Positions 949-56,118 are shown, counted from the stretch's first letter. The stretch is 64,000 nucleotides of DNA from an uncultured bacterium (GCA_964606065.1 CAZSEX010000004.1:8311-72310), one strand, 5' to 3'. The notes: generated by a model from the letters alone, not told the origin. A program made the numbers and translations.

Positions 949-1091
949 TTTAACCACGAAACACACGAAAGACACTAAACCCAACAACCCTTTTTAAATT
1001 TGGGTTAAAAAAATACACGGAAAAACCGATTCTCACAAAGAAACACTGAGAGCACAGAGATTTTTTAATTCAACATTCAAAATTCACAATT
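949..1091. repeat. Left-facing cluster of short-period repeats (A: 949-979; cacagag-type 1017-1059; B: 7-mer type 1066-1091)
   Basis: A (tttaaccacgaaacacacgaaagacactaaa) is a 29/31 inverted match to 5124-5154. B (taattcaacattcaaaattcacaatt) matches the reverse complement of 5076-5109. Confidence 0.8.
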
Positions 1092-1158
1092 ATTTTCCTT
1101 CCTAACCTTCTAACATCCTAACTGCTTTTAAAACTATTTGACTATTAAGTTTTTTACA

Positions 1159-3414
1159 TTATCTTGTTAGAAGTGCTTTTTTTGTGATCGATCTATTCCC
1201 GGCTGTCATTCTCAAGAAATAAATGCCTGAAGATGTATTTTGAGCGTTCCATCTTACGCTATGGTGACCTGCATTCATTTTCCCGTTTACCAGTTTTGCC
1301 ACTTCCTGTCCCAGCATATTATATACTGATAATTTAACATGAGCGGGTTTAGATAATATGTAATCGATATTCGTTGTTAAGATAAACGGGTTGGGATAGT
1401 TTTGCTCCATGCTGAATCCGAGCGGAGACTTATCATATTCTTGGTATTCTACTATGCTTATGTTTCCCGGGTGGCGACCTGGATGAGAATAGCTGAGCCC
1501 GTCGTACCAGGTGCGGCAGATGTCGCCTGCTTCTATGCCTGCTCTACCGACCTTGATTGCTTCATCGTCGATGAAAACATTCAGGTTGTCATTGGTTTCT
1601 ATTACGACTCTTCCGAGATAAGCCTGGTAAAGAAAGGTATTACCCCCACCAGTCAATACTAATTCGCAATTATGATCTTTACTCATTACCTGTTTGCAAG
1701 CCATCTGCCTGAATATTTGCATATTATTGCTGTCGAGGCCCGCTTCTATTCGCCAGTCGTCTAAAGGGTTCGCCCAGAAGTTAGCCCATACGTCATAAGT
1801 TCCTTCTTCGATATCGGTTACCCGCGTTTTGATAACAGGCGCGTCTTCATATCCAATTTCGGCGGAAGTCAGTACGGAATTGCCATTTCCGTAAGAAGTC
1901 CTTATGTGCCACTGGTTGTCCGAAGGACCCGCATTATCATCCGGACCGGTTGTAATGAGAGTCGAACCATCTGCTAAAAATGTATTTTCTGTGGAAGCAT
2001 CCACATAACTCATCAGTACGGTAGAATCCGATGAGTTTTCTGTAATTCCTACAATAGCGGCGTCGTATTCCTGCGCTCTGAAATAAGTTCCCCTGAACCA
2101 CAGTAATGCAATATCGTTTTCGTTCCATTCTGGTATTATAGGTCGGAAATTATCACGTTCGGAATTTACAGTTATATCGGTCCATTCCCAGGTTGCTCCA
2201 TCGTCTGAGCTGACTCCTTTAAATATTTCGCGGGTGCCTAAAAATGTTGCATCGTTACTTGGATTATAAGGCGTCGAAACATAAATAATGTTGGGGTCGC
2301 TCGGATGTATCGCCGCAAGACCTACATAATCCTCTTCGGAAAAATACATTTTCTTACCTGCTTTGCACAGATATGTCGATGTCCAGCTCGAACCGTCGAA
2401 ACGGCAGTATATGAAAGCATGATCGGGGTCGCTCGAACTGCCGCCTGTTCTTGCCGATATTATCGCGGCGATTGTTCCGTCCTCGTATGTCTGCACATCT
2501 ATATTCCAGCAATTCGTCATCGTGTAACCATTTAATTCTGTATTTGCCGCAAAGACAGTTGTGAAATTATTTGTCGTGGGAATGAAAGATTTACTATATA
2601 TATCGGAATCGACCTCGGCATCGAAAGAATTGTATACTTTGCCGTCGTATATGTATGCGTGATATATGCTGGTGTTATAGTTACGGGGATGGGTTTCCGT
2701 GCAGATAAAATCTATCCGGTCGATTCCGTTTCCCCAGTATTTGTAATAACCTCTACTATACCCGCCCACAGTACCGGCTGATAACTGGCCTCCGTAAGAC
2801 CATCTATCCCCGCCATTATCGGAATACATGAAGTTGGGGGCTCCTCCGTCGTTACCCCGCGCGAAATTGAACATCCTGCCTTCATCAGAAAGGTAATATA
2901 AATTTGAATAAGTGGTCTGATAATCCGACCCTCCGGGTATCGAATCGTCCCAGCTAAATTCATATTCCGTGCTCCATACCCCTGCATCATATATTCTGAA
3001 AAACGAACTCTCCAGTCCGAAATGTGCTGCGTAAAATGCCGTATATTTACCGTCGGGTCTAATAAGAAGACCGGGTGCGTGGTGATCGTCACAGTAAAAT
3101 TGACCGCCGCCTTCTCTCAGAACGTATCTTCGCGGCGTCATCGATTGTAGGTCGAATATGACGGCTTCGACATCTCCGAAACGGGGAGCATTGCCGCAGC
3201 CGGAATCCGAGGCTATGGAACCTACAACTAATTTATTTCCTGTTGTGTCGATAACCGACCGTTCATCCTGATACCAGCACCAGGCGCCGTTGTCGGTGAA
3301 TTGAATTAAATTGCCGTTTACGATATCCTGTGTCTGACCAAAAGTGCTTATACAAAGTAGCATAAGTAAAATTACTGTATAAGAAAATCTATTAACGATA
3401 AATTTTTTGTCCAT
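1159..3414 (-). CDS. Secreted BNR-repeat (beta-propeller-like) protein with a T9SS-type C-terminal sorting domain
   Basis: N-terminal signal peptide. BNR-like SxDxGxTW motifs (SDNGGDRW, SSDDGATW) and a DNGAWCWYQDER...DDHHAP N-terminus of BNR_4-like proteins. C-terminal QNYPNPF...YNMLGQEVAKLV...SSGIYF...KK.LLTR. Confidence 0.75.
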   Translation of the reverse strand: MDKKFIVNRFSYTVILLMLLCISTFGQTQDIVNGNLIQFTDNGAWCWYQDERSVIDTTGNKLVVGSIASDSGCGNAPRFGDVEAVIFDLQSMTPRRYVLREGGGQFYCDDHHAPGLLIRPDGKYTAFYAAHFGLESSFFRIYDAGVWSTEYEFSWDDSIPGGSDYQTTYSNLYYLSDEGRMFNFARGNDGGAPNFMYSDNGGDRWSYGGQLSAGTVGGYSRGYYKYWGNGIDRIDFICTETHPRNYNTSIYHAYIYDGKVYNSFDAEVDSDIYSKSFIPTTNNFTTVFAANTELNGYTMTNCWNIDVQTYEDGTIAAIISARTGGSSSDPDHAFIYCRFDGSSWTSTYLCKAGKKMYFSEEDYVGLAAIHPSDPNIIYVSTPYNPSNDATFLGTREIFKGVSSDDGATWEWTDITVNSERDNFRPIIPEWNENDIALLWFRGTYFRAQEYDAAIVGITENSSDSTVLMSYVDASTENTFLADGSTLITTGPDDNAGPSDNQWHIRTSYGNGNSVLTSAEIGYEDAPVIKTRVTDIEEGTYDVWANFWANPLDDWRIEAGLDSNNMQIFRQMACKQVMSKDHNCELVLTGGGNTFLYQAYLGRVVIETNDNLNVFIDDEAIKVGRAGIEAGDICRTWYDGLSYSHPGRHPGNISIVEYQEYDKSPLGFSMEQNYPNPFILTTNIDYILSKPAHVKLSVYNMLGQEVAKLVNGKMNAGHHSVRWNAQNTSSGIYFLRMTAGNRSITKKALLTR

Positions 3415-3478
3415 TAAAAAAGCCTCCTTATGCTTTTTTTATCGAAAGAATTTATAAGGATGGTTAAGTTATTCTCTA

Positions 3479-3522
3479 TATTAATCGGCGATTAATACTA
3501 CTAAAATTTGTTCCTCTGTCAA
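3479..3522 (-). promoter_or_regulatory. Promoter of the BNR gene with a 19-bp palindromic operator candidate
   Basis: TTGACA (3522-3517), N16, TAGTAT. Palindrome TATTAATCG-G-CGATTAATA at 3479-3497 overlaps the -10/start region. Confidence 0.55.
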
Positions 3523-3527
3523 GCCTG

Positions 3528-4010
3528 AAGCCCATCCCGGCCCAATTTTTTAACATAGAGGACACAGAGAGAAGACAAAACACAGAGAACACGGAGAAAA
3601 CCCGTTGGGATTAGAAACAGTGTAATTGGTGGTATGTGATATGAGATAAGAGATAAGGGATAAGGGATAAGTGGTAAGTGTTTTTTCTTAATCCTTGCTC
3701 TTCTTTGATTTTGCTCATCTAATCCTTGATCCTCGCTCGACTTCCTTGCCGTTCTACTAATCCAAAATAATATCACACACAAAGCCACCCCCTATGGAAT
3801 AAAAGTCGTTATTCCATAGGGCAGGCAAAGGACACAAAGAAAAACAACAAAATTAATATCAATTATTAAAACCCTCATCCCTTACTAAAAATAGGAACAA
3901 CAAATTACACGAATATCACAAATGATTTTAATGTTTTTGTTTTTTGGCTAATGACTGGCGACTGGTGACTGATGACTAAGTTAGGCACAAAGAACACAAA
4001 GTTTATAACT
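3528..4010. repeat. Pile-up of several short-period repeat families plus a 13-bp hairpin between divergent promoters
   Basis: acacagaga-type (3553-3598), gataagg 7-mers (3640-3680), tccttgatcctcgctc (3723-3742), hairpin ccctatggaataa/ttattccataggg (3790-3821), acacgaat-type (3893-3922), gtgactg 7-mers (3948-3979), cacaaag-type (3985-4002). Confidence 0.75.
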
Positions 4011-4127
4011 GTTGGTCGGTGGGTCCTTTAGAATGTATTTTATCCCCCTTCCGCTTGACTAAAAGATAAAGAGTATATAATATATAATAATTAAAAAAAG
4101 GAAATTTTTAAATATTTAGGAGGTCTT

Positions 4128-5036
4128 ATGGAATTTTTTAGAAACAAAATAAAATACTATTCTCAATCATTTCTCTTTATTTTTATTGCTCTGGCTTTTC
4201 TTTTTTCCTGTAAAAATGACAGTACCGGTCCCTCTACAAGTACCTCCACCACTTCATCTGCCACCACTACTACTATTTATACTCCTCCTTCTCCTCAGAT
4301 AGAAAAAAAGGATACTTTAAATGAAGTTTCAATCAAGCTGAGTGGAGGAGCTTTTGAACTTTCAAATAACGCGTGGGGATATCCCTGTAATTCAGATGAG
4401 TGTTATCAGGCAATCATACTTTATACGGACGGTAGTTACGGCTGGGAGTGGTGTAGAGATACAACAAATGATACAGATCCAAATTATCCTGAAGTTATAT
4501 GCGGTACCAAGCCCTGGGGCACACAAACGGGGGTTTCAATTTTCCCGATACAGATTAAAGATATAAATTCTTGCGACGCTGAGATAGATATTGCGTTTGG
4601 TGTAGAGGGAAATAACTGGAATTTTGCTTTTGATTTCTGGTTGACTGCGCAGGAACCGGGAGGAACTGATGTTTCGGGCTCGATAACCGATGAAGTTATG
4701 ATATGGCTCGGCTGGGGATCTACCCACGATGGAGTTAGTATAGTAGAACAGGATGCAATTGCCGATGGGGAAAACATTTATGATTATGCGCAGTATTATT
4801 CTGTCGACTGGGATTACCATCAATTCAGGATTTCCGGTGAACAGAGAATTCCGTCTGCAATTGATTTAAAACTTTTTATAGATTACGTTAAAGATAGATA
4901 CAGTAAGAGTGATACGCTCTGGGTAGGCGGTATGGAATTGGGAAACGAATACTGGGATTTCACCGAAGGAGCATGTACGGTAAAAGTTCTGAATTATACG
5001 GTAAACGGAGTAACTGCTGTTAGCGGTTCGAACTGA
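4128..5036 (+). CDS. GH12 endoglucanase/xyloglucanase, lipoprotein with Ser/Thr linker
   Basis: Lipobox FLFSC, then a STSTSTTSSATTTT linker. GH12 motifs SNNAWG, YPEVICGTKPWG, FPIQI, NFAFDFW, DEVMIWL (nucleophile Glu) and GMELGNE (acid/base Glu). Confidence 0.85.
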   Translation: MEFFRNKIKYYSQSFLFIFIALAFLFSCKNDSTGPSTSTSTTSSATTTTIYTPPSPQIEKKDTLNEVSIKLSGGAFELSNNAWGYPCNSDECYQAIILYTDGSYGWEWCRDTTNDTDPNYPEVICGTKPWGTQTGVSIFPIQIKDINSCDAEIDIAFGVEGNNWNFAFDFWLTAQEPGGTDVSGSITDEVMIWLGWGSTHDGVSIVEQDAIADGENIYDYAQYYSVDWDYHQFRISGEQRIPSAIDLKLFIDYVKDRYSKSDTLWVGGMELGNEYWDFTEGACTVKVLNYTVNGVTAVSGSN

Positions 5037-5048
5037 GAGGATGCTGGT

Positions 5049-5154
5049 AGGCGAGTGAGGATTAAGGACGATAATAATTATGAGTTTTTAGTTTTGAATT
5101 ATGAATTAGAAACAACAAAAATATTTAGTGTGTTTCGTGTGTTTAGTGGTTAAA
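5049..5154. repeat. Right-facing repeat cluster (D' 5049-5068, B' 5076-5109, A' 5124-5154)
   Basis: Reverse-complement partners of 3723-3742 (17/20), 1066-1091 and 949-979 (29/31). Confidence 0.8.
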
Positions 5155-5168
5155 TAACTTTTTTGTAA

Positions 5169-7628: not shown

Positions 7629-7810
7629 TTTATCTGTTTTTAGGATATGCTTTTTGTTAAATCTGTCAAGCAAATCAAACTAATCCTCTACAACCAACAT
7701 CTTTTATCACAGGACACACAGAATCCCTACAGCTCAACTACCCAAAAGTAATCGATTTTTATATGAGAGTATCTTTAAACCATTTACGAACATAAGGCTA
7801 AGAGGATTTT

Positions 7811-8167
7811 TTATTCTGTATTCTGCTTTTGCGAATCCTCTAAAATTTTTTCAATTAAAGATTTGATTTCAGGCAATCTTTTTTTTACTACTTCCCAGAC
7901 TATTTCATAATCAACCCCAAAGTAGAAATGTATGATTTTATCTCTCATTTTTGCCATATCAATCCAGGATAAATCTTTATATCTTTTACGGATTGACTCG
8001 GGTATATTCTTTGTCGCTTCTCCGATCACTTCGATCTCGCGTACTACCGCGCTTTTGGTTTTTTCATCCCGCATAAATTCATCAAAGCTATTATAACTTA
8101 TAAAATTCTCAATCTTATTTATGGATGTTAGAATATCCTTTATAAAAAGTTTATAATCCCTTTTCAT
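7811..8167 (-). CDS. HepT-like (DUF86/HEPN) RNase toxin
   Basis: 118 aa with EVIGEA and an intact R-x4-H motif (MRDKIIH) followed by YFGVDYEIVW. Overlaps the upstream nucleotidyltransferase gene. Confidence 0.88.
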   Translation of the reverse strand: MKRDYKLFIKDILTSINKIENFISYNSFDEFMRDEKTKSAVVREIEVIGEATKNIPESIRKRYKDLSWIDMAKMRDKIIHFYFGVDYEIVWEVVKKRLPEIKSLIEKILEDSQKQNTE

Positions 8168-8457
8168 ATCTCCACTGCTTCGCTTAATATTTGGTCTCTT
8201 AGCTCCATTCTTAAAACAGGTTTTCTTACTAAATCTACCTTTACTCCCAATATATTTTCAAGGTATCTTTCGATTTCAATGAACTTTAAAAGGTCCGGTG
8301 TTTCATGAAAATCTACAAGAATATCTACATCACTCTTTTTGTTCTGTTCATTTCTGACATAAGAGCCGAAGATGGCTATACTTTTTACTTTATATTCTTC
8401 TTCAAGTTTCTTTTTATGTTCATTGATAATTTTTTTTAACTCTTCTAACCTTTTCAT
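8164..8457 (-). CDS. MntA-like minimal nucleotidyltransferase antitoxin
   Basis: IFGSYVRNEQNKKSDVDILV (GS...DxD) and LGVKVDLV. Confidence 0.9.
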   Translation of the reverse strand: MKRLEELKKIINEHKKKLEEEYKVKSIAIFGSYVRNEQNKKSDVDILVDFHETPDLLKFIEIERYLENILGVKVDLVRKPVLRMELRDQILSEAVEI

Positions 8458-8735
8458 ATATACATTATCTCCAAAAATTTTTCAATATTGGTAAGGATAA
8501 GGGAAATGTCGTGAATAGTCAAGGGGATTGTTGCAGGGGATTTCGCAAAAAATAACAAATTGTGCTATTTATATGAATTGTTGTTTCTCTTTGTTATTTT
8601 TTTGTGTTTTTTAAACGGTTCAACGGACTAAACGACCCACAGACCAGCGTTTTAAAATCTCTGTATTCTCCGCGTTTCAAATGTGGGGTATAAGTTGATA
8701 TTCAATTATAAAAGGTTATATTCATTGAAACGGAT

Positions 8736-9377: not shown

Positions 9378-9396
9378 TTAAAACAACATACCTTTT

Positions 9397-9473
9397 CTAC
9401 TGTGTTCTCCGTGTGAGTAAAAAAAGCTGACAGCCTCAGCCGACGGCAAAAAGTCTTTGTGTTCTCTGTGGTT
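9397..9473. repeat. Two right-facing 9-mer-period repeat halves
   Basis: ctactgtgttctccgtgtgag (9397-9417) and gtctttgtgttctctgtggtt (9453-9473), same family as the cacagag/cacaaag units at 7707-7724 and 3553-4002. Confidence 0.65.
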
Positions 9474-9484
9474 CATCTTCTTTT

Positions 9485-12176: not shown

Positions 12177-12220
12177 GATGAAAAAAGGTCTTAGGTATCT
12201 GTTTTTAGGTGTAAGTAAAA

Positions 12221-12549
12221 AACTACAATCACTACATGTTCTACATGTGAGGGTCTAGTCATTAGTCGGTTGTCACTGGTCACTTGTCAAAAAAAGTAAA
12301 AAATTAGTGTAATTCGTGTGATTCGTTGTTCCTCGTTTTTTTGGTGGGATGATGGGATAAAATCCTGTAAATCTGCGCCCGATTATAAATCCTTTGGATT
12401 AGTTAAATGGTCAAATCGTTGAATGGCTGATTAGCAAAAACAAACAACTATAATTACTACATGTTCTACATGTGAATATTTGGGTTGGGAAAGGTTTTAA
12501 ATGACATAATATCTTTTTTCTTTGTGGTCTTTGAGAGCTCTGTGGTTAA
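12221..12549. repeat. Repeat cluster: 30-bp direct repeat pair plus right-facing halves of several families
   Basis: aactacaatcactacatgttctacatgtga (12221-12250) vs 12446-12475 (28/30). 12256-12288 is inverted to 3948-3979. 12312-12333 is inverted to 3893-3914 (20/22). ctttgtgg...ctctgtggttaa at 12520-12549. Confidence 0.75.
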
Positions 12550-15545: not shown

Positions 15546-15700
15546 CCACAAAGCACGCAAAGATCACAAAGATTTTATTTTTTTTAAAAAGAATTATCTT
15601 AATCCTGTTTAAATTTTTTGGGTGGTTAAGGTGGGGTGAAAAGAAATAATTAAAAGTGGGGTATGGGTGTGGCTTTGAGTACTTTGTGGTCTTTGTGTTT
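15544..15700. repeat. Empty inverted-repeat element between convergent genes
   Basis: aaccacaaagcacgcaaagatcacaaag (15544-15571) faces ctttgagtactttgtggtctttgtgttt (15673-15700) around a ~100 bp AT-rich core. Confidence 0.7.
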
Positions 15701-15709
15701 AATTCTTTC

Positions 15710-21103: not shown

Positions 21104-21340
21104 TCAAAATTAATCGAAATTTAAAAATCAAATATCAAAATAGAAAATTACAAATCAAAGTTCAAAAAGAAAATTTGCCGCGGATTAACACGGATATACA
21201 CAGATAAAAAAATTAAAATTTTCTTTGTTGTTTAAAAAAAATTATATTATGAGGGGGTGGAAAAATCCGTGAATATCTGTGCGAATCTGTGGCTAAAAAA
21301 AATATTTTGCTTTTTAATTTTTGGCATTTAATTTGTATTC
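21104..21340. repeat. Empty nested inverted-repeat element (G-H-core-H'-G')
   Basis: Outer tcaaaat-type 7-mers (21104-21167 and 21304-21340). Inner gccgcggattaacacggatatacacagat (21177-21205) vs 21265-21293 (22/29 inverted). Confidence 0.75.
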
Positions 21341-22429: not shown

Positions 22430-22495
22430 GTTTCGAGTTCCGAGTAAAAAAACAGAAATAAAAACTTTGTGGTCTTTGTGTCTTTGTGTGAGAAT
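22430..22495. repeat. Solo right-facing repeat halves inside the methyltransferase cluster
   Basis: agtttcgagttccgagt 7-mers and ctttgtggtctttgtgtctttgtgtgagaat (22465-22495). Confidence 0.6.
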
Positions 22496-46706: not shown

Positions 46707-49700
46707 AAAGAGCGGGAAGAGAATTGTCGTTCAGGTGGATTTTGTTTAGCTTGCTTTGGTTTGCAGCTTTTTTTATGGTTATCCAGAATGCGGAAGCAGC
46801 AATTACCGGAAAAATTGCTGGTGTCGTTGTGGATGAGAGAACAGGTGAACCGTTACCCGGTGCCAACGTTATAGTTGAGGGTACTGACAGAGGAGCTGCC
46901 TGTGACGCTGACGGTTATTATTACATAATAAGATTGGAACCGGGAACCTATAACGTTCAGGCGAGGATGATGGGATATACCAGCGTTACAAAGGCGGGTG
47001 TTAGAGTCATTTCCGATCATACCACTCCGCTTGATTTTAAATTGACGCCGACGGTAGTGGAAGGAGAAGGAGTGACGATTCAAGCTGAAAGGGAAGTTAT
47101 CAAGATGGATCTTTCTTCCAGTTCTTTCGCTGCGGATAAAAGTGAAATAGAGGCTGTCCCTCTTATCGAAGACGTGAAACAATATTTGAACTTTCAGGCC
47201 GGAATAGCAGGCTGGAGTGTTAGGGGCGGCAGTCAAGGTGAGACCAAATTGCTGGCTGATGGTTTGCTTCTTGTCGACCAGAGATCAAATGAACCTATCA
47301 TGATGCCCAATCTGAGCGAGATAAAAGAGGTTCGTGTGATGAAAGGAGGCTTTAACGCGGAATACGCGAATGTTCGTTCGGGTATTATAAACGTTGTAAC
47401 CAGAGAAGGTTCTCCCGATAAATACGAAGGTTCATTCGAGTTCAGATATACTCCGGGTTATCAAAAGCATAAAGGTAGAACGATCTTTGACCCCGATAAT
47501 TATCATAACGCATTGTATTTATGGAACAAGTTAGATACTGGTTATTTGAATCCTATATTAGATACGTCAGGTAATATTATTTCATATGAAGATACGGTTG
47601 TTGGATATGACAGCGTTTGCTGGAAAGGCTCCGGCAAGGTATGGGGAGATCCAACCAGTCCGTTTTACGATACGGTTAAATATAACAATTATGGAGAGTT
47701 CAGAGGATGGATACGGCTGGTAGGAAGAGACACGACTACTACTCCTGAAATGCAGCGTGATAAATTTCTGTGGATGCGCCGTATTAATACACCAAGAACA
47801 GATTCTCTCTTATTGATTTATAATGGTGGTGATTCCATATACGTCCCGGTTTATGAGAATGATTCATTAACCGGATATAAAAAGGTTGCTTATGATTTTA
47901 GTGATCAAGACAGGACCGGCGAATACGGTCAACTGCCGGATTGGACACTGGACGCCGGCTTTGGTGGTCCCATTCCTATTATTAGCAGTTATTTGGGTGA
48001 TATGACATTTTATACTTCTTACAGGGATCATAATGAAACATTCGCTATCCCGGACAGCAGGGATTATTACAGGGAACGCCAGACGAGTTTAAAGTTGACT
48101 TCTCGTTTTGGCGATTTAAAGGCGAGTATTAAGGGTGTCTACTCGATTATTAATTCCCTCTCTCCGTTCGGCGAGGGTCACAGGTGGGAAGGGGAATATT
48201 CCCAGGGGTTAACCGGACAGGTATACCTCCGAGACGGTTCGGATATGCTATTTGGAATCGGGGATTATGATGGAAGATGGCACGGCAGTAATAAATTGAG
48301 CCTTGATCAGCTGTACAAAGCAAATGCGTTAACCCCGTTCGATATTACTTCCAGAATGTACGGTCTCGCGCTTCAGCATGCGTTGAGCGAGAATACTTTT
48401 TATGATCTGCATTTGACTTATATACGCAGTGGGAATGACGCTAAATACAATTTTGATGTGCCGACTCGTATGATGGGAGATACAGTAGTACTTTGGTTTT
48501 CAGATATTGTTGGACAAACCGAACATGCTGTGGATGATGTCCCATTTGGATGGGCCGACCCTCGATATGAAAACAACTATGGATATGATGAGACTGGCGA
48601 AGCACAATTTGGGTTTTCTCATCAATGCGGAACCTGGAATACTTCCTGGTCGCAGACCTATAGCGCGAGGTTTGATATGAGTTCGCAGATAAATAAGTAC
48701 AACCTGATAAAAGGCGGTCTTTCGTTTCAATATGATAAACTGCACGAGTTTTATATCACCAATGAGGGATGGTTCTGGCCGGAACCCGGAGAAAGAGACC
48801 ATAGTGAGGGATATTATTTTAACTATGACGCGTATCCTATCCTTGCGGGTGGTTATATTCAGGATAAAATTGAATTCGAAGGGATGTTTGGAAATATTGG
48901 TATGAGGTTTGATTACTCGGACCCGAATACCGAATGGCCGACGACTGAAGACAGATATTCGATGTTTTTCTCCAAATATCTTAAAGATTCTTTGTTTACT
49001 CAGGGTCCTGTAGAAGACGTAAGTCCTCACTTTGCGATAAGTCCACGACTCGGAATTTCATTCCCGATATTGGAAAGAAGCAAGTTGTTCTTCAATTACG
49101 GACATTTTTACTCCCTGCCGAACAACGAGGACAGGTATAAAATCGACTGGGGTAAGGAGACTGAAAATATTCATTTCCTGGGGAATCCGCGTCTTGAGAT
49201 GGAGAGAACTGTTTCTTATGAGGTGGGTCTTGAAAGCGGTATAGCCAACACTTATATGGCAAGGGTTTCAGGTTACTATAAAGATGTAGATAATGAAGCT
49301 GGTGAGATTGGATATTATGGGCTTGAAGGTTTATATGTTGATTATACGACGATGGAAAATACCGGCTACGGTGATATAAGGGGTTTTGAAATTGAGTTCA
49401 GGAAAGACCATGGAAGGTTTTTTACAGGATGGATAAATTATGATTACATGGTGCACACATCAGGAAACATCGGGATAACGCAGCATTATGAGGAACCGCT
49501 TTTAGAGTCAAGAGAAACAGAGGTGGACCCAAAGGAAGATAGTCCCGTTCCGAGACCCGTTTTCAGGACTTTACTCACATTAAAGACGCCTCAGGATTGG
49601 GGAATATTTTTGGGCGGTTATAATCTTTCATTCTTATATCAATGGAGAGCGGGATATTATGATACCCATAATCCTTATGGAGACGATTTGGAAGATGCGT

Positions 49701-50089
49701 TGCAGAACAATATCCAGTGGCCTTCTACGCGCATTCTTGATATGAGTATAAACAAGAGTCTTTCGGTCGGGGGTATTACAGCCAATCTGTTTGTGGAAGT
49801 GCACAATGTTTTTGACTGGCAGACTTTAAATTCTCAGGGTTTTGACCCCACGATACCTAAGAATGGGGACCGGGTTGCATATTTAAATTCACTTCATCTC
49901 GAGATTTATGATAAAGAACCTTTTCTGGCAGATGAGTCGATGAAGGGTCCTGAAGAACTTGGAGTTGAGCCGGATCACATTGGAGATTTGCGAAGCGAAG
50001 ATAAACCGTATATAAATAATCCGAATAGAGAATTTCTGTATTACCTTGATCCCAGATATGTGCAGTTTGGAATAAGGTTCTCTTTTTAG
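46703..50089 (+). CDS. TonB-dependent receptor 2 (paralogue of TBDR1)
   Basis: Same architecture and C-terminus PRYVQFGIRFSF. Confidence 0.9.
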   Translation: MKRAGRELSFRWILFSLLWFAAFFMVIQNAEAAITGKIAGVVVDERTGEPLPGANVIVEGTDRGAACDADGYYYIIRLEPGTYNVQARMMGYTSVTKAGVRVISDHTTPLDFKLTPTVVEGEGVTIQAEREVIKMDLSSSSFAADKSEIEAVPLIEDVKQYLNFQAGIAGWSVRGGSQGETKLLADGLLLVDQRSNEPIMMPNLSEIKEVRVMKGGFNAEYANVRSGIINVVTREGSPDKYEGSFEFRYTPGYQKHKGRTIFDPDNYHNALYLWNKLDTGYLNPILDTSGNIISYEDTVVGYDSVCWKGSGKVWGDPTSPFYDTVKYNNYGEFRGWIRLVGRDTTTTPEMQRDKFLWMRRINTPRTDSLLLIYNGGDSIYVPVYENDSLTGYKKVAYDFSDQDRTGEYGQLPDWTLDAGFGGPIPIISSYLGDMTFYTSYRDHNETFAIPDSRDYYRERQTSLKLTSRFGDLKASIKGVYSIINSLSPFGEGHRWEGEYSQGLTGQVYLRDGSDMLFGIGDYDGRWHGSNKLSLDQLYKANALTPFDITSRMYGLALQHALSENTFYDLHLTYIRSGNDAKYNFDVPTRMMGDTVVLWFSDIVGQTEHAVDDVPFGWADPRYENNYGYDETGEAQFGFSHQCGTWNTSWSQTYSARFDMSSQINKYNLIKGGLSFQYDKLHEFYITNEGWFWPEPGERDHSEGYYFNYDAYPILAGGYIQDKIEFEGMFGNIGMRFDYSDPNTEWPTTEDRYSMFFSKYLKDSLFTQGPVEDVSPHFAISPRLGISFPILERSKLFFNYGHFYSLPNNEDRYKIDWGKETENIHFLGNPRLEMERTVSYEVGLESGIANTYMARVSGYYKDVDNEAGEIGYYGLEGLYVDYTTMENTGYGDIRGFEIEFRKDHGRFFTGWINYDYMVHTSGNIGITQHYEEPLLESRETEVDPKEDSPVPRPVFRTLLTLKTPQDWGIFLGGYNLSFLYQWRAGYYDTHNPYGDDLEDALQNNIQWPSTRILDMSINKSLSVGGITANLFVEVHNVFDWQTLNSQGFDPTIPKNGDRVAYLNSLHLEIYDKEPFLADESMKGPEELGVEPDHIGDLRSEDKPYINNPNREFLYYLDPRYVQFGIRFSF

Positions 50090-50112
50090 AAGGTAAAGGA
50101 GGTTATTGAAAA

Positions 50113-52458
50113 ATGAAACAGAGGAAGTTATTAATATTAATTTTTCTTCTGGCTTTTTTCTGGGTGAGTGGTGTTCATGCTCAGATTGCTACAATGGTCA
50201 AAGTGGGAAAAATGGAAGCCAGGATATTTGACCACGGCTGTCAGAGCAATGATCTTTATCAAAATGGTATGATTCGCTACTTTAGAGGTAGTTACATTAG
50301 AGAGGAGGATGCGTTTGAAAGCCCGTATCAACAGCAGATTCTTGGGGATGCCGGAATGCTTTTTGGTGCTCGAAACTGGGTGGATGCAACCGGACATAAA
50401 TGGGACGCTTTTGTCACTGGACATGGTGCTCGTTTACGTGGAGAGGAAAGCGAATCTTATCAATTTGCCGTTCCGGATGAAGAAGGGTATTCCGTACGAA
50501 GATATATGAGATATCCTCTTCCAAAGATATTTGTAGATGGAGTAGAAACCGGAGATCCGTTTCCTATGTCGGGAGATGATGTGGCGCCCGAGAAAGTATG
50601 GGGAACCGCCGATATAATGGTTGAGTCCAATGTCAGATTTAATATCGGTGTGGATGCCAAACAGAGGGTGTTAGCCTGGAGTCAGCCGGGGCATGATGAT
50701 TATGTAATATGGGATTGGACATTTGTAAACACGGGAAATGTCAATTTAGATGATAATATCGAGCTTCCGGAGCAGGCATTGGAGGATGTTTATATTAACA
50801 GAATTACCGAGACTATGGTAAACGGGACCGGGGATAATAAAGTATTTCCTACTTTTTCAGGAACAACAGAAGATCAGGACACAAGGCTTTCCTATCCCCA
50901 GGATGATGACTCTCTTCGGATTGATTATGTCACTCCTCTTAGAACAGATGAGACGAGTGATACTTACGGTCTCAACCCTTCAGTTGGTGTGTCGAATATT
51001 TTGACCGGATCTCGTTTTGCGGGTTCAGCGACTTTGTTTGCCCCTAAATCATGCGATGTTCCGCAGTTACCAAATACTCCTGCCAGTAATGACCCGGCTC
51101 AGCCGTCTATGCATACGAGTCTCTTAGCTGAGCCCAGCTGGATGTTGTTGCACAATGGGATATTGGCTGATTTTCCCGCAATGACACCCCAGGAATTCGT
51201 TGATGCTTATGAAATTATGAAGAAGGGTGTATTTGGTATTGATCCGGAAGAAGTTAACTATCAGAAAACTTATCCTATGGATAGTGTTTATGATGTTTAC
51301 GATACTACCGCCAGCGGTGCACCCACTTATTATGAACAACCCGTGGATAGATGGGGAGAGTTGGACCCGGATAGGGGATACAGATATGCCTCGGAAATTC
51401 CTTCTACCATTATCAGGTGGGACCAGCAGTGTCATTTTTCCATAGGTCCATACCAGATGGAATTCGGAGACACTCTGAGGTTTGTATATGCTTATGTGGC
51501 TGGTGCCATAAATAGGAAAGCTTCATATCTCGCCGGTGAGGCCTGGAATAATGGTAACGCTGCTTCTTACGGCTGGCTGGCAGAGATGGATTCGGCTGAA
51601 ATGGTTGAAGAGTTAAAGAAAAGGGATCCTATATTCGATGTTTTTTTTGATATCGGAGAGTTAACTCCCGTATCTTCGCTTAATGATATAGCGAAAGACC
51701 TGTTGGTGGCAACAGGGAGAGATTCTCTCTTCAATAACGGCATGAACGCGCAGAGAAACTTTAATATGGATTATGACATACCCGAATCTCCCGCGCCTCC
51801 TTCCGTTTTTAATGTTACTTCACGTCCCGATATGATAAAGCTGACATGGAGTTATCAGTCTGATTTTGGTAATTATAAACCTTCGAATCTTGCAAAGTTT
51901 AGAATCTACAGAGCTTTAGGAGGTTATGTATATGAAAAACAGGGAGAGATTGTTACGGGTGACTGGCAAGTGATCGACTCTGTCGGTGCGAACGATACCT
52001 TATATGAGGATACGAGTGTTACTCCGACTGTTGATTATTACTACGCGATTACAGCTGTAAGCAATTCGGGAGTTGAAAGCGGAATGTTTTTAACAATGAC
52101 CAAATTAGCGGCGAATTTACAAAGTCATCCAGGTACCGATCTCAATGCCGTTAGAGTTGTTCCAAATCCTTTAAATGTAAATTCTTCGGCACGTACGAGA
52201 TACAGCGAGGGAGGGGGATTAAAATTAGCCTTTGTCAAACTGCCTGGTGAATGCACAATTACTATATTGACAGAATCGGGAAATCTGGTGACCACCATTG
52301 AGCATAAAAACGGAAGCGGAACAGAAACGTGGGAACCAAAGAATCAACAATTTCTTCTTACGGATTCCGATCAGCTGCCTGCGAGTGGAATTTATATTGC
52401 TCATATAACGACTCCTGAGGGCAAACATGTTTCTCGCAAGTTCGTAATAATAAGATAA
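50113..52458 (+). CDS. Secreted TBDR partner protein 2 with Fn3-like and T9SS-type C-terminal domains
   Basis: Paralogue of 28315-30651, ending ASGIYIAHI...KFVIIR. Confidence 0.72.
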   Translation: MKQRKLLILIFLLAFFWVSGVHAQIATMVKVGKMEARIFDHGCQSNDLYQNGMIRYFRGSYIREEDAFESPYQQQILGDAGMLFGARNWVDATGHKWDAFVTGHGARLRGEESESYQFAVPDEEGYSVRRYMRYPLPKIFVDGVETGDPFPMSGDDVAPEKVWGTADIMVESNVRFNIGVDAKQRVLAWSQPGHDDYVIWDWTFVNTGNVNLDDNIELPEQALEDVYINRITETMVNGTGDNKVFPTFSGTTEDQDTRLSYPQDDDSLRIDYVTPLRTDETSDTYGLNPSVGVSNILTGSRFAGSATLFAPKSCDVPQLPNTPASNDPAQPSMHTSLLAEPSWMLLHNGILADFPAMTPQEFVDAYEIMKKGVFGIDPEEVNYQKTYPMDSVYDVYDTTASGAPTYYEQPVDRWGELDPDRGYRYASEIPSTIIRWDQQCHFSIGPYQMEFGDTLRFVYAYVAGAINRKASYLAGEAWNNGNAASYGWLAEMDSAEMVEELKKRDPIFDVFFDIGELTPVSSLNDIAKDLLVATGRDSLFNNGMNAQRNFNMDYDIPESPAPPSVFNVTSRPDMIKLTWSYQSDFGNYKPSNLAKFRIYRALGGYVYEKQGEIVTGDWQVIDSVGANDTLYEDTSVTPTVDYYYAITAVSNSGVESGMFLTMTKLAANLQSHPGTDLNAVRVVPNPLNVNSSARTRYSEGGGLKLAFVKLPGECTITILTESGNLVTTIEHKNGSGTETWEPKNQQFLLTDSDQLPASGIYIAHITTPEGKHVSRKFVIIR

Positions 52459-52471
52459 AGGGGAGGAAAGA

Positions 52472-53449
52472 ATGAAGAAATTTTTTATTATAGCTCTATT
52501 AACTGTTTTTTCGATTAATGCTTACTCGAGCAAAAAAGTCGCCCAGACAGGAGGCGGGTTTTTGGATGTTGGTGAGGGAGCACGGGCTTGCGGAATGGGA
52601 GAAGCATTTACTGTATTAGGGCAAGATGCTACCTCTCTTTTCTATAATCCCGCGGGTATAGGAGAAATCGATGCCGGTTTTGATTTGTCGACCGGCGGAA
52701 CGCAGTGGATAGCAGATATTCAGTATCTTTATCTATCTGGGGTTTTAAATGCAGGGGTGTGGGGAAATTTCGGTTTTAGCCTTATAGCTCCCGATTATGG
52801 TGATTTTTACGGCACCATAGTTACTGAAGGCGGAGCAGGCTATGCGGAGACTGATACCTTTGGTGTTAAGGCGTTTTGCGGGGGTGTAGCTTACGCCAGA
52901 GAATTCACCGACAAATTTACGGTAGGTCTTCAAGTTAAATATGTTTCCCAGTATCTGGGACAAAATGAAAAAGGAGATAGTATAGGGGGTTATTATAAGG
53001 AAGACAACTATGTTTGGACCCTTGCTTATGATTTCGGTTTGCTTTTCGCCCCCGGCTTTAAAAGTTTTGCTTTCGGTATGTCCGTTAGAAATTTCTCCCC
53101 CAGGGTGACTTACGAATTAGTGGGTTTTGAATTGCCTTTAACCTTTGCTCTTGGCGTGGGTATGGATGTTCTGGATCTTTTCGGGGAATATGAAGATTAT
53201 TCGTTTAATATAGGCGCCGAAATGCTGCATCCGCGTGACTGGGACGAACAGTATCATGTGGGAGGAGAACTCTCGTTTAAAAATATGCTTTTTCTGCGAG
53301 CTGGTTATAAATTCAACTATTTCGCGGAGGGTTTAAACGCCGGGGTTGGCATTAGTGTTGGGGGAGTGAAAATCGATTATTCTTACAGTGAATTCGATTT
53401 AACGGGTATAGACATGGTTAATAGAGTCTCCGCCGGATTCGCTTTTTAG
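52472..53449 (+). CDS. PorV/PorQ-family outer-membrane beta-barrel 2
   Basis: KVAQTG...GARACGMGEAF...LFYNPAG, C-terminal Phe. Paralogue of 30665-31639. Confidence 0.82.
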   Translation: MKKFFIIALLTVFSINAYSSKKVAQTGGGFLDVGEGARACGMGEAFTVLGQDATSLFYNPAGIGEIDAGFDLSTGGTQWIADIQYLYLSGVLNAGVWGNFGFSLIAPDYGDFYGTIVTEGGAGYAETDTFGVKAFCGGVAYAREFTDKFTVGLQVKYVSQYLGQNEKGDSIGGYYKEDNYVWTLAYDFGLLFAPGFKSFAFGMSVRNFSPRVTYELVGFELPLTFALGVGMDVLDLFGEYEDYSFNIGAEMLHPRDWDEQYHVGGELSFKNMLFLRAGYKFNYFAEGLNAGVGISVGGVKIDYSYSEFDLTGIDMVNRVSAGFAF

Positions 53450-53467
53450 AGAGACAGCTGAGTAAGT

Positions 53468-53512
53468 AAATAAAACAGGTCACGGTTATTAAAATCGTGA
53501 CCTGTTTTATTT
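53468..53512. terminator. Bidirectional intrinsic terminator
   Basis: Perfect 17-bp stem aaataaaacaggtcacg/cgtgacctgttttattt between convergent genes. Confidence 0.8.
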
Positions 53513-53540
53513 TGAGTTATGAGTTTTGAATTTTGGATTT
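53511..53540. repeat. Solo 7-mer-period repeat half
   Basis: tttgagttatgagttttgaattttggattt, same family as 5076-5109. Confidence 0.55.
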
Positions 53541-53568
53541 TTTACTAGAAAAACCTAATAACAGATAC

Positions 53569-55839: not shown

Positions 55840-55906
55840 TTATTTTGCGCTCCTTTTTTATCAGGGATAATAAGATATTTAAAATAAAAGTCAAGGTGCC
55901 GGGTTT

Positions 55907-56118
55907 ACCGCAAAGACGCAGAGAACGCGAAGCCCATCCCATAAAAATTATTGTTTTTTGTCTTTCAAGCCCTATTACTAAATCAAAATTCTGAGAAGAT
56001 GTAAAAAAAACGAAACGCTCGCTTATTATACGCCGTATGTAATCTTGCGGTTCCTTTTTCGGTGTGGGGATGGGTTTAAATAATAATTTTTTCTTTGCGT
56101 ACTCTGCGTCTCTGCGGT
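55907..56118. repeat. Empty nested inverted-repeat element (J-K-core-K'-J')
   Basis: accgcaaagacgcagagaacgcgaag (55907-55932) vs 56093-56118 (23/26 inverted). Inner aagcccatccc (55930-55940) vs gggatgggttt (56067-56077). Confidence 0.8.

Follow-up and report, generated by a model that had tools for sequence, protein, structure and literature searches.

Between the genes of a 64,000-nucleotide stretch of DNA from an uncultured bacterium, hereafter called the window, lie many runs of short tandem units, and the question is what kind of element they belong to. An earlier note on this DNA had described them as nested inverted pairs, some of them empty and some bracketing genes, and had taken them for the ends of a cassette-like or MITE-like system. 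The arrays were followed up in the window itself, in its relatives and across bacterial phyla.

Arrays and hairpins in the window

A 9-mer array was defined strictly as two or more units of C[AG]C[AGT][AG]A[GA]N1-3, the unit consensus being CRCNRAGRN. The 6.8 kb of intergenic DNA contains 11 such arrays, where 200 dinucleotide shuffles average 0.06 (maximum 1), and the 57 kb of coding DNA gives 3 weak matches of the CGC type. Strict period-7 arrays number 4, with 0 expected. With TRF also reporting them, the arrays are indeed present where they had been described, far above chance. On reading, arrays were recognised in 12 intergenic regions: 836-1158, 3415-4127, 5037-5168, 7674-7810, 8458-8735, 9174-9484, 12062-12599, 15546-15709, 21004-21379, 22415-22626, 53450-53568 and 55840-56181. 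When seven relatives are added to the window, 43 arrays are counted in 19 kb of intergenic DNA and 5 in 172 kb of coding DNA. The features of the window are as follows.

949..980, + strand: forward 9-mer array CCACGAAACA CACGAAAGA CACTAAAC, outer end TTTAACCAC; reciprocal best partner 5124-5154
1034..1063, + strand: orphan forward 9-mer array CACAAAGAA ACACTGAGAG CACAGAGAT
1067..1125, + strand: 7-mer array of AATTCAA type (1067-1091), then 8-mer array TCCTAACN (1096-1125)
3552..3600, + strand: forward 9-mer array CACAGAGAA / CACGGAGAA, 30 nt outside the -35 box of a 751-aa gene
3636..3765, + strand: G-rich 7-mer array GATAAGG (3636-3680) and a degenerate pyrimidine-rich partner; homologous to 12640-12760 of relative L262, there turned the other way with respect to the 751-aa gene
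3826..3925, + strand: two degenerate forward 9-mer arrays, GGACACAAAGAAAAACAACAA and CAAATTACACGAATATCACAAATG, the second of which reappears in the loops of 7-mer elements of relatives
3951..4005, + strand: GTGACTG-type 7-mers (3951-3977), then forward 9-mers CACAAAGAA (3986-4005); a GH12-like gene with a TTGACT promoter follows
5040..5154, + strand: composite 3' of the stop codon of the GH12-like gene, with G-rich 8-mers (5040-5075), 7-mers TGAGTTT/TGAATTA (5076-5108) and reverse 9-mers (5124-5154, ...GTGGTTAAA)
7705..7727, + strand: weak forward 9-mer-like array TCACAGGACACACAGAATCC, without a specific partner
8585..8680, + strand: degenerate reverse 9-mer arrays between two HepT/MNT toxin-antitoxin modules
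9397..9476, + strand: two reverse 9-mer arrays, CTGTGTTCTCCGTGTG and TCTTTGTGTTCTCTGTGGTT, 3' of the decayed second toxin-antitoxin module
12217..12540, + strand: mosaic in a divergent spacer, with a 34-nt direct repeat CTACATGTT present twice (12217-12250, 12442-12475), C-type 7-mers (12256-12290) and reverse 9-mers (12298-12336, 12515-12540)
15546..15700, no strand: empty hairpin of 9-mer arms where a rarA-like and an HtrA-like gene converge; arms 15546-15575 (forward, CACAAAGAT) and 15668-15700 (reverse)
21106..21340, no strand: nested element with outer A-rich/T-rich 7-mer arms (21106-21168, 21304-21340) and an inner 9-mer hairpin (21183-21210 CACGGATAT / 21262-21292)
22457..22490, + strand: orphan reverse 9-mers CTTTGTGG TCTTTGTG TCTTTGTG, flanked by co-directional genes
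53509..53541, + strand: 7-mer array TTTTGAG TTATGAG TTTTGAA TTTTGGA, immediately 3' of a canonical intrinsic terminator
55901..56124, no strand: empty 9-mer hairpin, the metE and asd promoters pointing away from it on either side; arms GGGTTTACCGCAAAGACGCAGAGAACGCGAAGCCCATCCC and GGGGATGGG...CTTTGCGTACTCTGCGTCTCTGCGGTCGAAAACC
7-mer arrays (tandem 7-nt units, intergenic, several unit families): 1067-1091, 3636-3680, 3951-3977, 5076-5108, 12256-12290, 21106-21168, 53509-53541

Gene-less and orphan arms of both the 9-mer and the 7-mer class are thus held in the window. Two unit families are multi-copy, CACAAAG (3986, 12515, 15547, 15670, 22457) and CACGAAT (949, 3897, 5124, 12302). The placement beside -35 boxes and stop codons that had been pointed out earlier holds, as the arrays stop 30-50 nt outside TTGACA-type -35 boxes (3522, 7669, 12176, 4055) and the one at 15546 starts directly 3' of a stop codon. 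The absence of transposases and integrases was also borne out among the 41 window proteins scanned.

Specific inverted pairing is seen at three tight pairs (15546-15700, 21183-21292 and 55905-56120, the last with arms at 55905/56090) and at one distant pair, 949/5124. The partners in each of these four are reciprocal best matches within the window, and each pair has its own unit. The tight pairs, reported to enclose AT-rich DNA, are real. The stretch 55898-56128 is the best folder in the window (-41.8 kcal/mol vs -23.8 in shuffles, z -5.7), followed by 15540-15706 (z -2.4) and 21100-21345 (z -1.4), in whose centroid structure both the inner 9-mer and the outer 7-mer arms are paired. Among the three pairs that were said to enclose genes, 949-5154 stands as a pair (949-979 and 5124-5154 are complementary at 94% over 31 nt), but 3723/5068 and 7707/9473 do not; their scores are those of unrelated arrays, and they fall outside the 25 longest inverted pairs listed. 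No hairpin fold is found at 3630-3770 (z +2), and the 7-mer 'pair' 1067/5076 has a polarity opposite to that of the canonical elements. Since many arrays are orphan or belong to multi-copy unit families, long-range 'bracketing' is indistinguishable from independent solo arms. Orphans are common and sometimes serial in one orientation (16345-16900 of relative L259), which a simple model of two ends of one element does not predict. A clean excision footprint was not found.

Turnover among relatives

In relatives at 77-87% nucleotide identity, the genes and promoters are kept, and the arrays in the matching spacers are entirely different. Array-free, 'empty' and 'filled' alleles occur, the last with toxin-antitoxin genes or an HNH nuclease gene, so that the presence/absence polymorphism expected under the earlier reading is seen at orthologous loci. 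In the rarA/htrA spacer, the window has an empty 9-mer hairpin, L182 has 7-mers only, and in L181 matching forward and reverse arrays enclose 1.1 kb with DUF4258-toxin, zinc-finger and membrane ORFs. In the purD/rarA spacer, L179/L180 carry an empty 7-mer hairpin, and L262 has those 7-mer arms together with 9-mer arms and the HNH nuclease gene. HNH genes of this family have no flanking 9-mer arms in other taxa, so some cargo is incidental. At the divergent spacer 12217..12540, a wholly different array set is carried by L001/L180.

Modules that include non-repetitive sequence are common to the window and its relatives and are placed at different loci. The module 1098-1146 is found at the 3' end of another gene in L258/L260 (92% over 49 nt), and the outer 21106 element has copies at no fewer than six other loci (88-100%). 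Identical modules at different loci indicate that the elements are dispersed and turn over fast. Gradual drift of the unit can be followed along one array, L182 13002-13065 (GTTAGGA TATAGGA TTTGGGG TTTGGGA TTTAGTT). The elements of this lineage are dispersed, mutually nested and fully different between relatives spacer by spacer, sometimes with selfish cargo. Accessory genes may be captured or deleted by them, and the window repeats may be mobilised in trans, as the earlier note supposed.

The proposal that 949-5154 brackets a captured gene did not survive the comparison. The 751-aa gene within it is in place in all four covering relatives, even in L260 and L262, where the flanking spacer is free of arrays, and it is therefore not captured cargo. 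In these two relatives, the spacers orthologous to array sites have a plain terminator instead. The 4.1-kb segment 949-5124 is inverted in none of the four.

Small genes between the arms

According to the earlier note, similar repeats flank small GxxExxY and four-helix-bundle genes in other anaerobe genomes. This link is real, and it is sharper than the note had it: 9-mers go with GxxExxY genes and 7-mers with four-helix-bundle genes. The GxxExxY set consisted of 80 independent genes picked by protein pattern alone, with TIGR04256 membership confirmed. A 9-mer array lies on at least one side of 69 of these, 41 of the 80 have a forward array upstream and a reverse one downstream, and no period-7 array in their flanks exceeds the periodicity threshold. 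The second set comprised 80 genes of TIGR02436, the family of the 23S IVS protein, and 9-mer arrays were found beside none of them (0/80). Their flanks are dominated by period 7 (25 upstream, 30 downstream, 3 inside genes), and most of the 80 are flanked by inverted 7-mer arrays. The inverted complementarity of a gene's own flanks has a median of 14, vs 7 for permuted pairs, and 70% of 79 genes lie above the 95th percentile. The 9-mer arms (class 1) thus tightly surround genes for GxxExxY proteins, which are small PD-(D/E)XK nucleases, in many phyla, and the 7-mer arms (class 2) surround genes for four-helix bundles of the family of the 23S intervening-sequence protein S23p and Avd. The gaps are only 12-19 nt upstream of the start codon and 10-14 nt downstream of the stop, leaving scant space for a promoter of the gene's own between arm and gene.

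Across 120 cross-phylum loci, 90 neighbour pairs run forward-then-reverse, 76 of them within 250 nt; for reverse-then-forward pairs, the figure within 250 nt is 16 of 44. Gene-less hairpins are far commoner than filled ones, and 47 empty loops contain no GxxExxY remnants. For a GxxExxY pair within one contig, the common sequence begins exactly at TTAACCAC; a cultured Bacteroides offers a clean example. The phage collection contains no GxxExxY genes and plasmids seldom carry them, and none of the 160 fetched loci of both gene sets lies within 23S rRNA. Searches of the window and of roughly 190 kb from the lineage turned up neither gene (phmmer for GxxExxY).

A set of 141 hairpins has the outer consensus TTNAC|CRC...GYG|GTNAA. 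At unit position 1, the arms pair as A:T in 102, as G:C in 28 and are mismatched in 11; at position 4, G:C (87) prevails over A:T (34). Target-site duplications, which the earlier reading would lead one to look for, are not seen in this set. Positions -1 to -5 are complementary between the sides and are not direct repeats, the flank being part of the palindrome. A near-identical 9-mer with the outer end TTNACCAC extends from Cyanobacteria through Planctomycetes to Bacteroides.

Known repeats and the nature of the elements

The link between genes and arms appears to be undescribed in the searchable literature, with partial prior art in Geobacter, in the heptamers of Xanthomonas and cyanobacteria, and in the 23S IVS. 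In Geobacter metallireducens, 'class 2 predicted global regulator binding sites' consist of three tandem TCTCCGTS[Y] units; they lie between conserved genes and are absent from a sister species, and 8-mer and 7-mer classes are also listed (Aklujkar et al. 2009, PMC2700814). The unit is the reverse complement of CACGGAGA, and the element is the same as the 9-mer hairpins of the window, where 3581-3598 (CACAGAGAACACGGAGAA) matches it and other loci carry variants. Both form intergenic opposite-strand pairs at variable distance (in the window 15546/15668, 21183/21262, 55905/56090 and 949/5124). The Geobacter sites differ in being described from one genome and read as IHF/HU or regulator sites, and that paper draws no link to GxxExxY, hairpins, mobility or other phyla. 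The copies in the window are gene-less, with no TIGR04256 gene between the arms.

The 23S IVS of Leptospira, Coxiella and Salmonella contain an S23p ORF or none, have terminal inverted repeats with a stem of about 28 bp, and show a patchy distribution that suggests horizontal transfer (PMC4990558). Their protein family, TIGR02436/PF05635, is the one found between 7-mer arms, and long-stem hairpins without an ORF occur in the window as well. IVS, however, are found within 23S rRNA, in helices 25/45, and RNase III cuts them out, whereas the window elements are intergenic and carry no RNA-specific signal; Rfam finds no rRNA in the window, and all elements lie between protein-coding genes. Cyanobacterial heptamer tandem repeats, the STRR, were reportedly described by Mazel in 1990. 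Others are GGGAATC in Xanthomonas (PMC4692102) and TAACTGA in Beggiatoaceae (PMC4679880). In these taxa too, arrays of 7-nt units lie between genes and are scattered patchily over the phylogeny, and the 70-75 convergent pairs of Xanthomonas have the G-rich strand first, which is the polarity of the four-helix-bundle arms (5' arm 9% C). Heptamers have instead been read as sites of translational regulation, as products of slippage or as sequences that form G-quadruplexes; they were reported to be unassociated with mobile elements, and no link to four-helix bundles was drawn.

REP/REPIN sequences are likewise short extragenic palindromes, often arranged as inverted doublets that fold into a hairpin some 100 nt long, and their hundreds of gene-less copies supposedly owe their movement to a single-copy, repeat-flanked gene acting in trans (RAYT). 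They have, however, a conserved GTAG head and a species-specific, non-tandem sequence, and their partner is a Y1 HUH transposase, whereas the present elements have a small PD-(D/E)XK nuclease or a four-helix bundle as partner and nearly the same unit across phyla. REP/REPIN-RAYT was rejected, as the 5' GTAG on an imperfect palindrome of 20-40 nt is missing (the 141 hairpins give TTNACCRC), the arms are tandem arrays and a Y1 (IS200/IS605-like) transposase domain is found in 0 of 41 window proteins. MITEs (Correia/NEMIS, Nezha, ERIC) are also non-autonomous, intergenic, nestable and foldable as RNA, with terminal inverted repeats. What sets them apart is a target-site duplication, an interior that is conserved and a parent IS encoding a transposase; none of the three was found here, and the filled versions hold the GxxExxY nuclease and no known transposase. 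Integron attC/CALIN sites resemble the arrays as variable self-complementary sites near small accessory and toxin-antitoxin genes. They were rejected, since the core sites RYYYAAC...GTTRRRY (a 57-141 nt imperfect palindrome 3' of the cassette ORF) are missing, the cargo lies inside the arms, the neighbours are housekeeping genes, each with a conserved promoter of its own, and the window has no integrase.

Taken together, the repeats of the window are probably the arms, paired or orphan, of two related classes of palindromic elements, which would be selfish or near-neutral and spread in trans by a matching small protein. Each arm, in both classes, is a short tandem array. A class 1 element has a left arm of 2-4 units of the 9-mer CRCNRAGRN (e.g. 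CACAGAGAA), a right arm of the complementary TTCTCTGTG and outer ends TTNACCAC...GTGGTNAA, and class 2 is arranged alike with 7-mer arrays. Such DNA would fill every unconstrained base from a stop codon to the next promoter, the window copies being presumably non-autonomous and dependent, for each class of arm, on its matching protein. In the case of class 1, the proposal is that the nuclease cleaves hairpins or cruciforms that are empty, after which a filled or sister copy serves for repair and the register-tolerant tandem arms provide short homology. Slippage within arms and correction between them may let the unit of each copy drift while self-complementarity is kept. Against this reading, neither a 120-aa nuclease nor a four-helix bundle is known as a mobility enzyme, and neither gene turned up in the window or the lineage DNA searched.

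The hairpins might act instead as RNA, their pairing being selected because the stems are RNase III sites that free a promoter-less small gene from a read-through transcript, or because they act as terminators or stabilisers. RNase III readily cleaves stems of about 32-35 bp, start codons lie only 12-19 nt beyond the arm, and 15546-15700 begins at a stop codon between convergent genes. The 23S IVS elements with TIGR02436 four-helix-bundle genes also have a 28-bp terminal stem cut by RNase III (PMC4990558). Mismatches between arms on the sense strand, however, show no excess of G:U over A:C (70 vs 80 for four-helix-bundle, 64 vs 75 for GxxExxY genes), nor is there a G:U excess in the 141 hairpins. 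Of the three tight window hairpins, two separate divergent promoters and should not be transcribed, the orthologous spacers of L260/L262 manage with a plain terminator, array orientation has no consistent relation to transcription in the window and seven relatives, and no hairpin matches Rfam, all of which makes an RNA role rather unlikely. In-place polymerase slippage, with inverted partners made by fold-back or template switching and the small genes met incidentally in permissive spacers, would account for the unit drift in L182, for the own unit at each locus and for the lack of target-site duplications; heptamers, the commonest long simple-sequence repeats in bacteria, have been ascribed to it (Mrazek 2007, as quoted in PMC4679880). 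It is improbable in view of the composite modules at different loci (1098-1146, the 21106 element) and of the 9-mer with its outer end that recurs from Cyanobacteria to Bacteroides, and the strict pairing of each array class with its own gene leaves permissive spacers as no explanation.

That the arrays are paired sites of IHF/HU or another global regulator, which would loop or bend DNA and regulate the neighbours, seems quite improbable. The 21 opposite-strand pairs of three tandem units in Geobacter were so annotated (PMC2700814), several arrays of the window are placed 30-50 nt ahead of -35 boxes, and cooperative binding typically uses tandem units. The units, however, vary by locus within the genome (CACAAAGAT, CGCAGAGAA, CACGGATAT, CACGAAACA), so a single regulator could not read them all. 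The same promoter has other units or none in the 77-87% identical relatives, the sites are missing at conserved gene pairs of G. sulfurreducens, and arrays are found equally after stop codons and around selfish genes. A cassette system served by a site-specific recombinase encoded elsewhere, after the attC or the Xer-dependent dif model, is most improbable. Variable yet self-complementary sites, some of them bracketing toxin-antitoxin or small accessory genes, do recall attC and pdif modules, and one hairpin-like module is oppositely oriented in the window and L262. Yet the outer consensus is not that of attC, the cargo lies between the arms and not beside a compact site, co-oriented arrays of promoter-less cassettes are not seen, the window proteins include neither an integrase nor an Xer-type protein, and the segment 949-5124 is uninverted in its four covering relatives.

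Beyond the two classes of trans-spread palindromic elements preferred for the window, it is possible, and is advanced only tentatively, that paired 9-mer and paired or solo 7-mer arrays across bacteria are arms or footprints of two sister families of hairpin-embedded selfish genes, each protein acting on its own class of arm. The gene partners would be the GxxExxY nuclease and the S23p/Avd-like four-helix bundle, and gene-less hairpins of the window type would be propagated in trans. This would cover STRR, the GGGAATC repeats of Xanthomonas, the 'regulator sites' of Geobacter and perhaps the stems of 23S intervening sequences. If true, these families would be an unrecognised kind of mobile element without a transposase, and several unexplained repeat classes and the rRNA intervening sequences would have a single origin.

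Short-period arrays and their inverted pairs

The window (64 kb, ~40% G+C) codes for type IX secretion-sorted proteins, glycoside hydrolases (GH9, GH10, GH43, GH3 and GH116), purD, a rarA-like ATPase, an HtrA-like protease, metE, asd and chemotaxis genes. No transposase, integrase or Y1 transposase was found among the 41 window proteins scanned, which bears out the earlier note's statement that the window lacks a transposase and an integrase. Its nearest relatives in public data are MAG or metagenome contigs, whose shared genes are 77-87% identical at the nucleotide level.

On reading the spacers, arrays of 2-5 units with a period of 9-10 nt are seen. Their forward units are CACAGAGAA, CACGGAGAA, CACAAAGAT, CGCAGAGAA, CACGGATAT and CACGAAACA, and the complement on the opposite strand is termed reverse. 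Arrays of period 7-8 (AATTCAA, GATAAGG, GTGACTG, TCCTAACN) can be read as well. With a strict 9-mer pattern, 11 arrays were counted in 6.8 kb of intergenic DNA, as against a mean of 0.06 and a maximum of 1 in 200 dinucleotide-preserving shuffles; the 57 kb of coding DNA gave 3 weak matches. When seven relatives were added, 43 arrays fell in 19 kb of spacer and 5 in 172 kb of coding DNA. The short-period intergenic repeats proposed from the sequence are thus real. All 12 array-bearing spacers lie within 0.8-22.6 kb and 53.4-56.2 kb, and the closely packed operons in between carry none. The orientation of the arrays relative to transcription appeared consistent by eye, but the count was 6 vs 10 and the idea was rejected.

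Three tight inverted pairs (15546-15700, 21183-21292 and 55905-56120) are specific, each having its own unit and arms that are reciprocal best matches. The folding energy of 55898-56128 is -41.8 kcal/mol vs -23.8 in shuffles (z -5.7), while 15540-15706 and 21100-21345 give z -2.4 and -1.4. In the centroid structure of the last, both sets of arms pair, inner 9-mer and outer 7-mer, and it is therefore truly nested. Among distant arms, 949-979 and 5124-5154 are 94% complementary over 31 nt. Thus, the pairing claimed earlier holds for the three tight pairs and for 949/5124, whereas the other two of the three proposed gene-bracketing pairs, 7707/9473 and 3723/5068, do not rise above background. A 7-mer 'pair' at 1067/5076 has a polarity opposite to that of all canonical elements, and hairpin folding is lost in the region 3630-3770. 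As several unit types are multi-copy within the window, long-range partners are ambiguous.

G-rich boxes (GGGATGGG or GGGGTGG, and their complements) recur beside or within the 9-mer hairpins:
15620-15665, G-rich box
55935-55945, G-rich box
56062-56076, G-rich box
3530-3545, G-rich box
Such boxes make the inner stem of 55901-56124. The box at 3530-3545 belongs to a promoter-proximal block conserved in the relative L259, and similar boxes occur in the locus L065. A 34-nt direct repeat (91% identical, core CTACATGTTCTACATGTGA) at 12217-12250 and 12442-12475 brackets ~190 nt of array mosaic; in the relative L179, the corresponding position holds a single copy.

A search of Rfam over the window gave no family at the gathering threshold or E <= 0.5, except a chance-level match to cow-rumen-4 RNA. 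The latter (3417-3481, minus strand; 32.5 bits vs a gathering score of 48.5, E 0.18) lies in the 5' leader of a gene for a 751-aa secreted protein and is probably due to chance. For the hairpins of 18 canonical loci no family was found either, SRP RNA and tRNA being the only matches there.

Other features of the window were also recorded. Two paralogous three-gene clusters (24832-31639 and 46703-53449) each code for a CarboxypepD_reg/beta-barrel outer-membrane protein (1154/1128 aa), a 778/781-aa protein lacking a family match and a 324/325-aa protein, of which the 324-aa one is weakly PorV-like and the 325-aa one has no family match. Xylan-degradation genes (GH43, GH10, GH3, GH116) lie between the two clusters, as do three tandem MFS_2 transporter paralogues (31742-36295), and arrays are absent throughout this block. 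Two URO-D-like methyltransferases, a B12-binding corrinoid protein and a RACo-type reductive activator (21380-24290 and 44904-46409) suggest a corrinoid-dependent methyl-transfer system. Two HepT/MNT (HEPN nuclease/nucleotidyltransferase) toxin-antitoxin modules stand back to back at 7811-8457 and 8736-9380; in the second, MNT is intact and the HepT-like frame past 9160 has stop codons. At the equivalent place, L259 has one module and the relatives L260 and L262 have none; L260 carries a PemK module elsewhere.

Replacement of spacers among relatives

In the relatives, genes are conserved, and so are the promoter blocks, which run from the start codon out to ~20 nt upstream of the -35 box; the spacer DNA between them is wholly replaced. 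Upstream of purD, the relative L001/L180 carries three copies of TTTTTGTGT just before TTGACT instead of the window's mosaic. The rarA/htrA spacer exists in four states.

States of the rarA/htrA spacer in the window and three relatives
Window: empty CACAAAGAT hairpin
L179: 7-mers and one orphan reverse array
L182: drifting 7-mers only
L181: forward and matching reverse arrays (CACGAATAACACAAA arm, 15/15 nt) enclosing 1.1 kb

The 1.1-kb insert in L181 codes for a DUF4258 toxin, a zinc-finger ORF and a membrane ORF. In the purD/rarA spacer, a different 340-nt element is found in the window, L181 and L182, and an empty 7-mer hairpin in L179 and L180. Within 7-mer arms of this latter type, L262 has 9-mer arms and, inside them, an HNH endonuclease gene. 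Both filled and empty alleles, the check proposed in the earlier note, are thus present at orthologous spacers. Following the 751-aa gene, the window has two reverse arrays and L259 at least seven; L260 and L262 have a plain terminator devoid of arrays. A GH12-like gene (4128-5036) is present in L258, L259 and L260 and absent from L262 and L263. Copies of the 21106 element, with 88-100% identity, are carried by at least six other loci in the relatives, and the module 1098-1146, which is partly non-repetitive, lies 3' of another gene in L258 and L260. Such comparisons argue against any locus-specific function and support dispersal, nesting and rapid turnover of the elements in this lineage.

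A called 117-aa ORF in the purD-rarA spacer (13899-14246) has no family match and looks non-coding from its sequence. Internal repeats (GCCCG.TC..CTCCGAGG..TTT) occur within it, and 14139-14165 resembles a terminator hairpin. L181/L182 conserve the sequence (11293-11719), and parts of it are repeated at different loci in relatives (L259 13436-13719, reversed; L258 1845-1922); it could be either a small RNA or one more dispersed element.

The HNH gene of L262 (1453-2073, 206 aa) has at least 795 homologues (proteins P0121-P0240 listed), 63-81% identical, including one assigned to Candidatus Methanoperedens (archaea) and one to Poribacteria. It is typically wedged amid housekeeping genes, and the family's distribution suggests a widely transferred selfish gene. 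The HNH nuclease was considered as the mobiliser of this lineage and rejected, as homologues in four other taxa lack 9-mer arms; for the same reason, the L262 gene is taken as incidental cargo.

Two arm classes and two small-gene families

An exact search for CACRGAGAACACRGAGAA, with one genome per species, gave at least 120 loci. This count is close to the chance expectation (~70, our own estimate for 596 Gb); the context is non-random. Among the matches listed, the typical context is a left arm of ACCACAGAGN-CACAGAGAA-CACAGAGAA, a loop, and then TTCTCTGTG-NNCTCTGTG-NCTCTGTGGT. These matches come from Planctomycetota, Acidobacteriota, Chloroflexota, Nitrospirota, Chlamydiota, Cyanobacteria, Proteobacteria, Leptospira, Bacteroidota, Cloacimonadota, Verrucomicrobiota and Firmicutes. 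Among them, the order of neighbouring arrays is forward then reverse in 90 cases, of which 76 lie within 250 nt, and reverse then forward in 44, of which 16 do. The arms covary in 141 hairpins: A:T 102, G:C 28 and mismatch 11 at unit position 1, and G:C 87 and A:T 34 at position 4. The palindrome reaches three bases beyond the arrays (TTNAC|CRC). Target-site duplications had been thought of earlier; no candidate direct repeat flanks the 141 hairpins.

The few long-loop array pairs held ORFs of the small nuclease family GxxExxY (TIGR04256, E 9e-44). An independent set of 80 GxxExxY genes was fetched by protein pattern alone, and by the strict array pattern 41 have a forward array upstream and a reverse one downstream, while 69 have at least one; most of the rest show variant units by eye. 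For the four-helix-bundle (23S intervening-sequence protein) family, a consensus probe validated as TIGR02436 (135 bits) was used to fetch 80 genes. None of these has 9-mer arrays nearby. Their flanks are mostly period-7 (25 upstream and 30 downstream vs 3 inside genes), and each gene's own flanks are inverted, with a median score of 14 vs 7 when permuted and 70% above the 95th percentile. No period-7 array in the GxxExxY flanks exceeded the threshold used for the four-helix-bundle flanks. Thus, there are two arm classes with one small-gene family each, and the coupling is strict. The link to both families, which the earlier note gave as unverified, is thereby confirmed.

The arms are ~32-35 nt long, with gaps of 12-19 nt from arm to start codon and 10-14 nt from stop codon to arm. 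Read on either strand, the 5' arm is rich in purines, with 9% C in the 7-mer class. For two GxxExxY copies on one Omnitrophota contig, the alignment starts exactly at TTAACCAC. A cultured organism offers a clean example: on a Bacteroides finegoldii plasmid, TTCACCACAGAGGACGCAGAGGACACGGAGGA ... AACTCTGTGACCTCTGTGTCCTCTGTGGTGAA enclose an annotated GxxExxY gene, situated between radA and the gene that follows. Gene-less hairpins are far more numerous than filled ones; that they are decayed GxxExxY genes was rejected, as 47 loops hold no remnants. Sequence search found no solved structure related to GxxExxY, and the phage collection contained no member. None of the 160 fetched gene loci lies in 23S rRNA. 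The one 23S match, a Sumerlaeota gene (L136 475-771) with an insertion of ~295 nt at E. coli position 1931/1932, was rejected as a link because the insertion is unrelated and lacks tandem-array arms; it could be an intron.

Origin of the elements and its implications

The elements are best read, we infer, as selfish palindromic elements acted on by a matching small protein, the window's copies being non-autonomous. Each protein would act on its own arm class. The GxxExxY nuclease would cut empty hairpins or cruciforms, and the tandem arms would then provide register-tolerant short homology for repair. Slippage and arm-to-arm correction would let the copies drift while self-complementarity is kept. 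Dispersal and filled and empty alleles are evident in the window's lineage; movement itself we infer. The weak points are the many orphan arms and the absence of any GxxExxY or four-helix-bundle gene from ~190 kb of the lineage's DNA. We know of no mobility chemistry for either protein.

If the hairpins acted only as RNA, mismatches should reflect it, yet there is no sense-strand excess of G:U over A:C (70 vs 80 for four-helix-bundle, 64 vs 75 for GxxExxY loci), and divergent promoters stand on both sides of two of the three tight window hairpins. Arrays serving as regulator sites are hard to reconcile with a unit that changes between loci and is absent in relatives. Pure slippage in place is argued against by identical composite modules at different loci, by units and ends that are near-identical across phyla, and by the strict coupling of gene family and arm class. 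The reading as selfish palindromic elements is therefore preferred.

The elements behave like REPIN/RAYT and MITE systems, yet fail the defining tests of both, and they fail those of integron attC sites too. Of the MITE-like origin proposed earlier, dispersal and filled/empty alleles stand, and the MITE-defining features do not. The 9-mer pairs were already annotated in 2009, in Geobacter metallireducens: three TCTCCGTS[Y] units per site, with 21 pairs of sites on opposite strands, taken for binding sites of IHF/HU or of a global regulator. G. sulfurreducens lacks them (PMC2700814). Xanthomonas GGGAATC heptamers form 70-75 convergent pairs, discussed as G-quadruplex formers and unlinked to mobile elements (PMC4692102), and TAACTGA heptamers occur in Beggiatoaceae, Cyanobacteria and Bacteroidetes in an unexplained horizontal pattern (PMC4679880). 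RNase III cuts the 28-bp inverted repeats that surround an S23p four-helix-bundle ORF in 23S rRNA intervening sequences, which have no established origin (PMC4990558). No paper joining the arrays to the two families was found in the literature searched, the coverage of which is incomplete, and an earlier description may exist elsewhere. The elements are palindromic intergenic repeats of unusual architecture, whose strict link to two enigmatic small-gene families is apparently undescribed.

The arrays break metagenome assemblies: the contig L178, 100% identical to window 12429-15894, has its edge inside the repeat mosaic upstream of purD. Contigs with the L262-type HNH gene are mostly only 1-5 kb, and short-read assemblies seem to break up at the arrays and selfish genes. 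The arrays also yield spurious ORF calls and are hotspots of spacer turnover beside promoters. To our knowledge, the cyanobacterial and Xanthomonas heptamers, the Geobacter 'regulator sites' and the 23S intervening sequences have stood for 15-35 years with neither origin nor mechanism, and the GxxExxY and four-helix-bundle families are among the commonest multi-copy small genes of bacteria to lack an explanation. The arm-class coupling and the excess of gene-less hairpins link the heptamers, the Geobacter sites and the 23S intervening sequences in one testable hypothesis, for which Bacteroides, Geobacter, Nostoc and Xanthomonas are tractable hosts.
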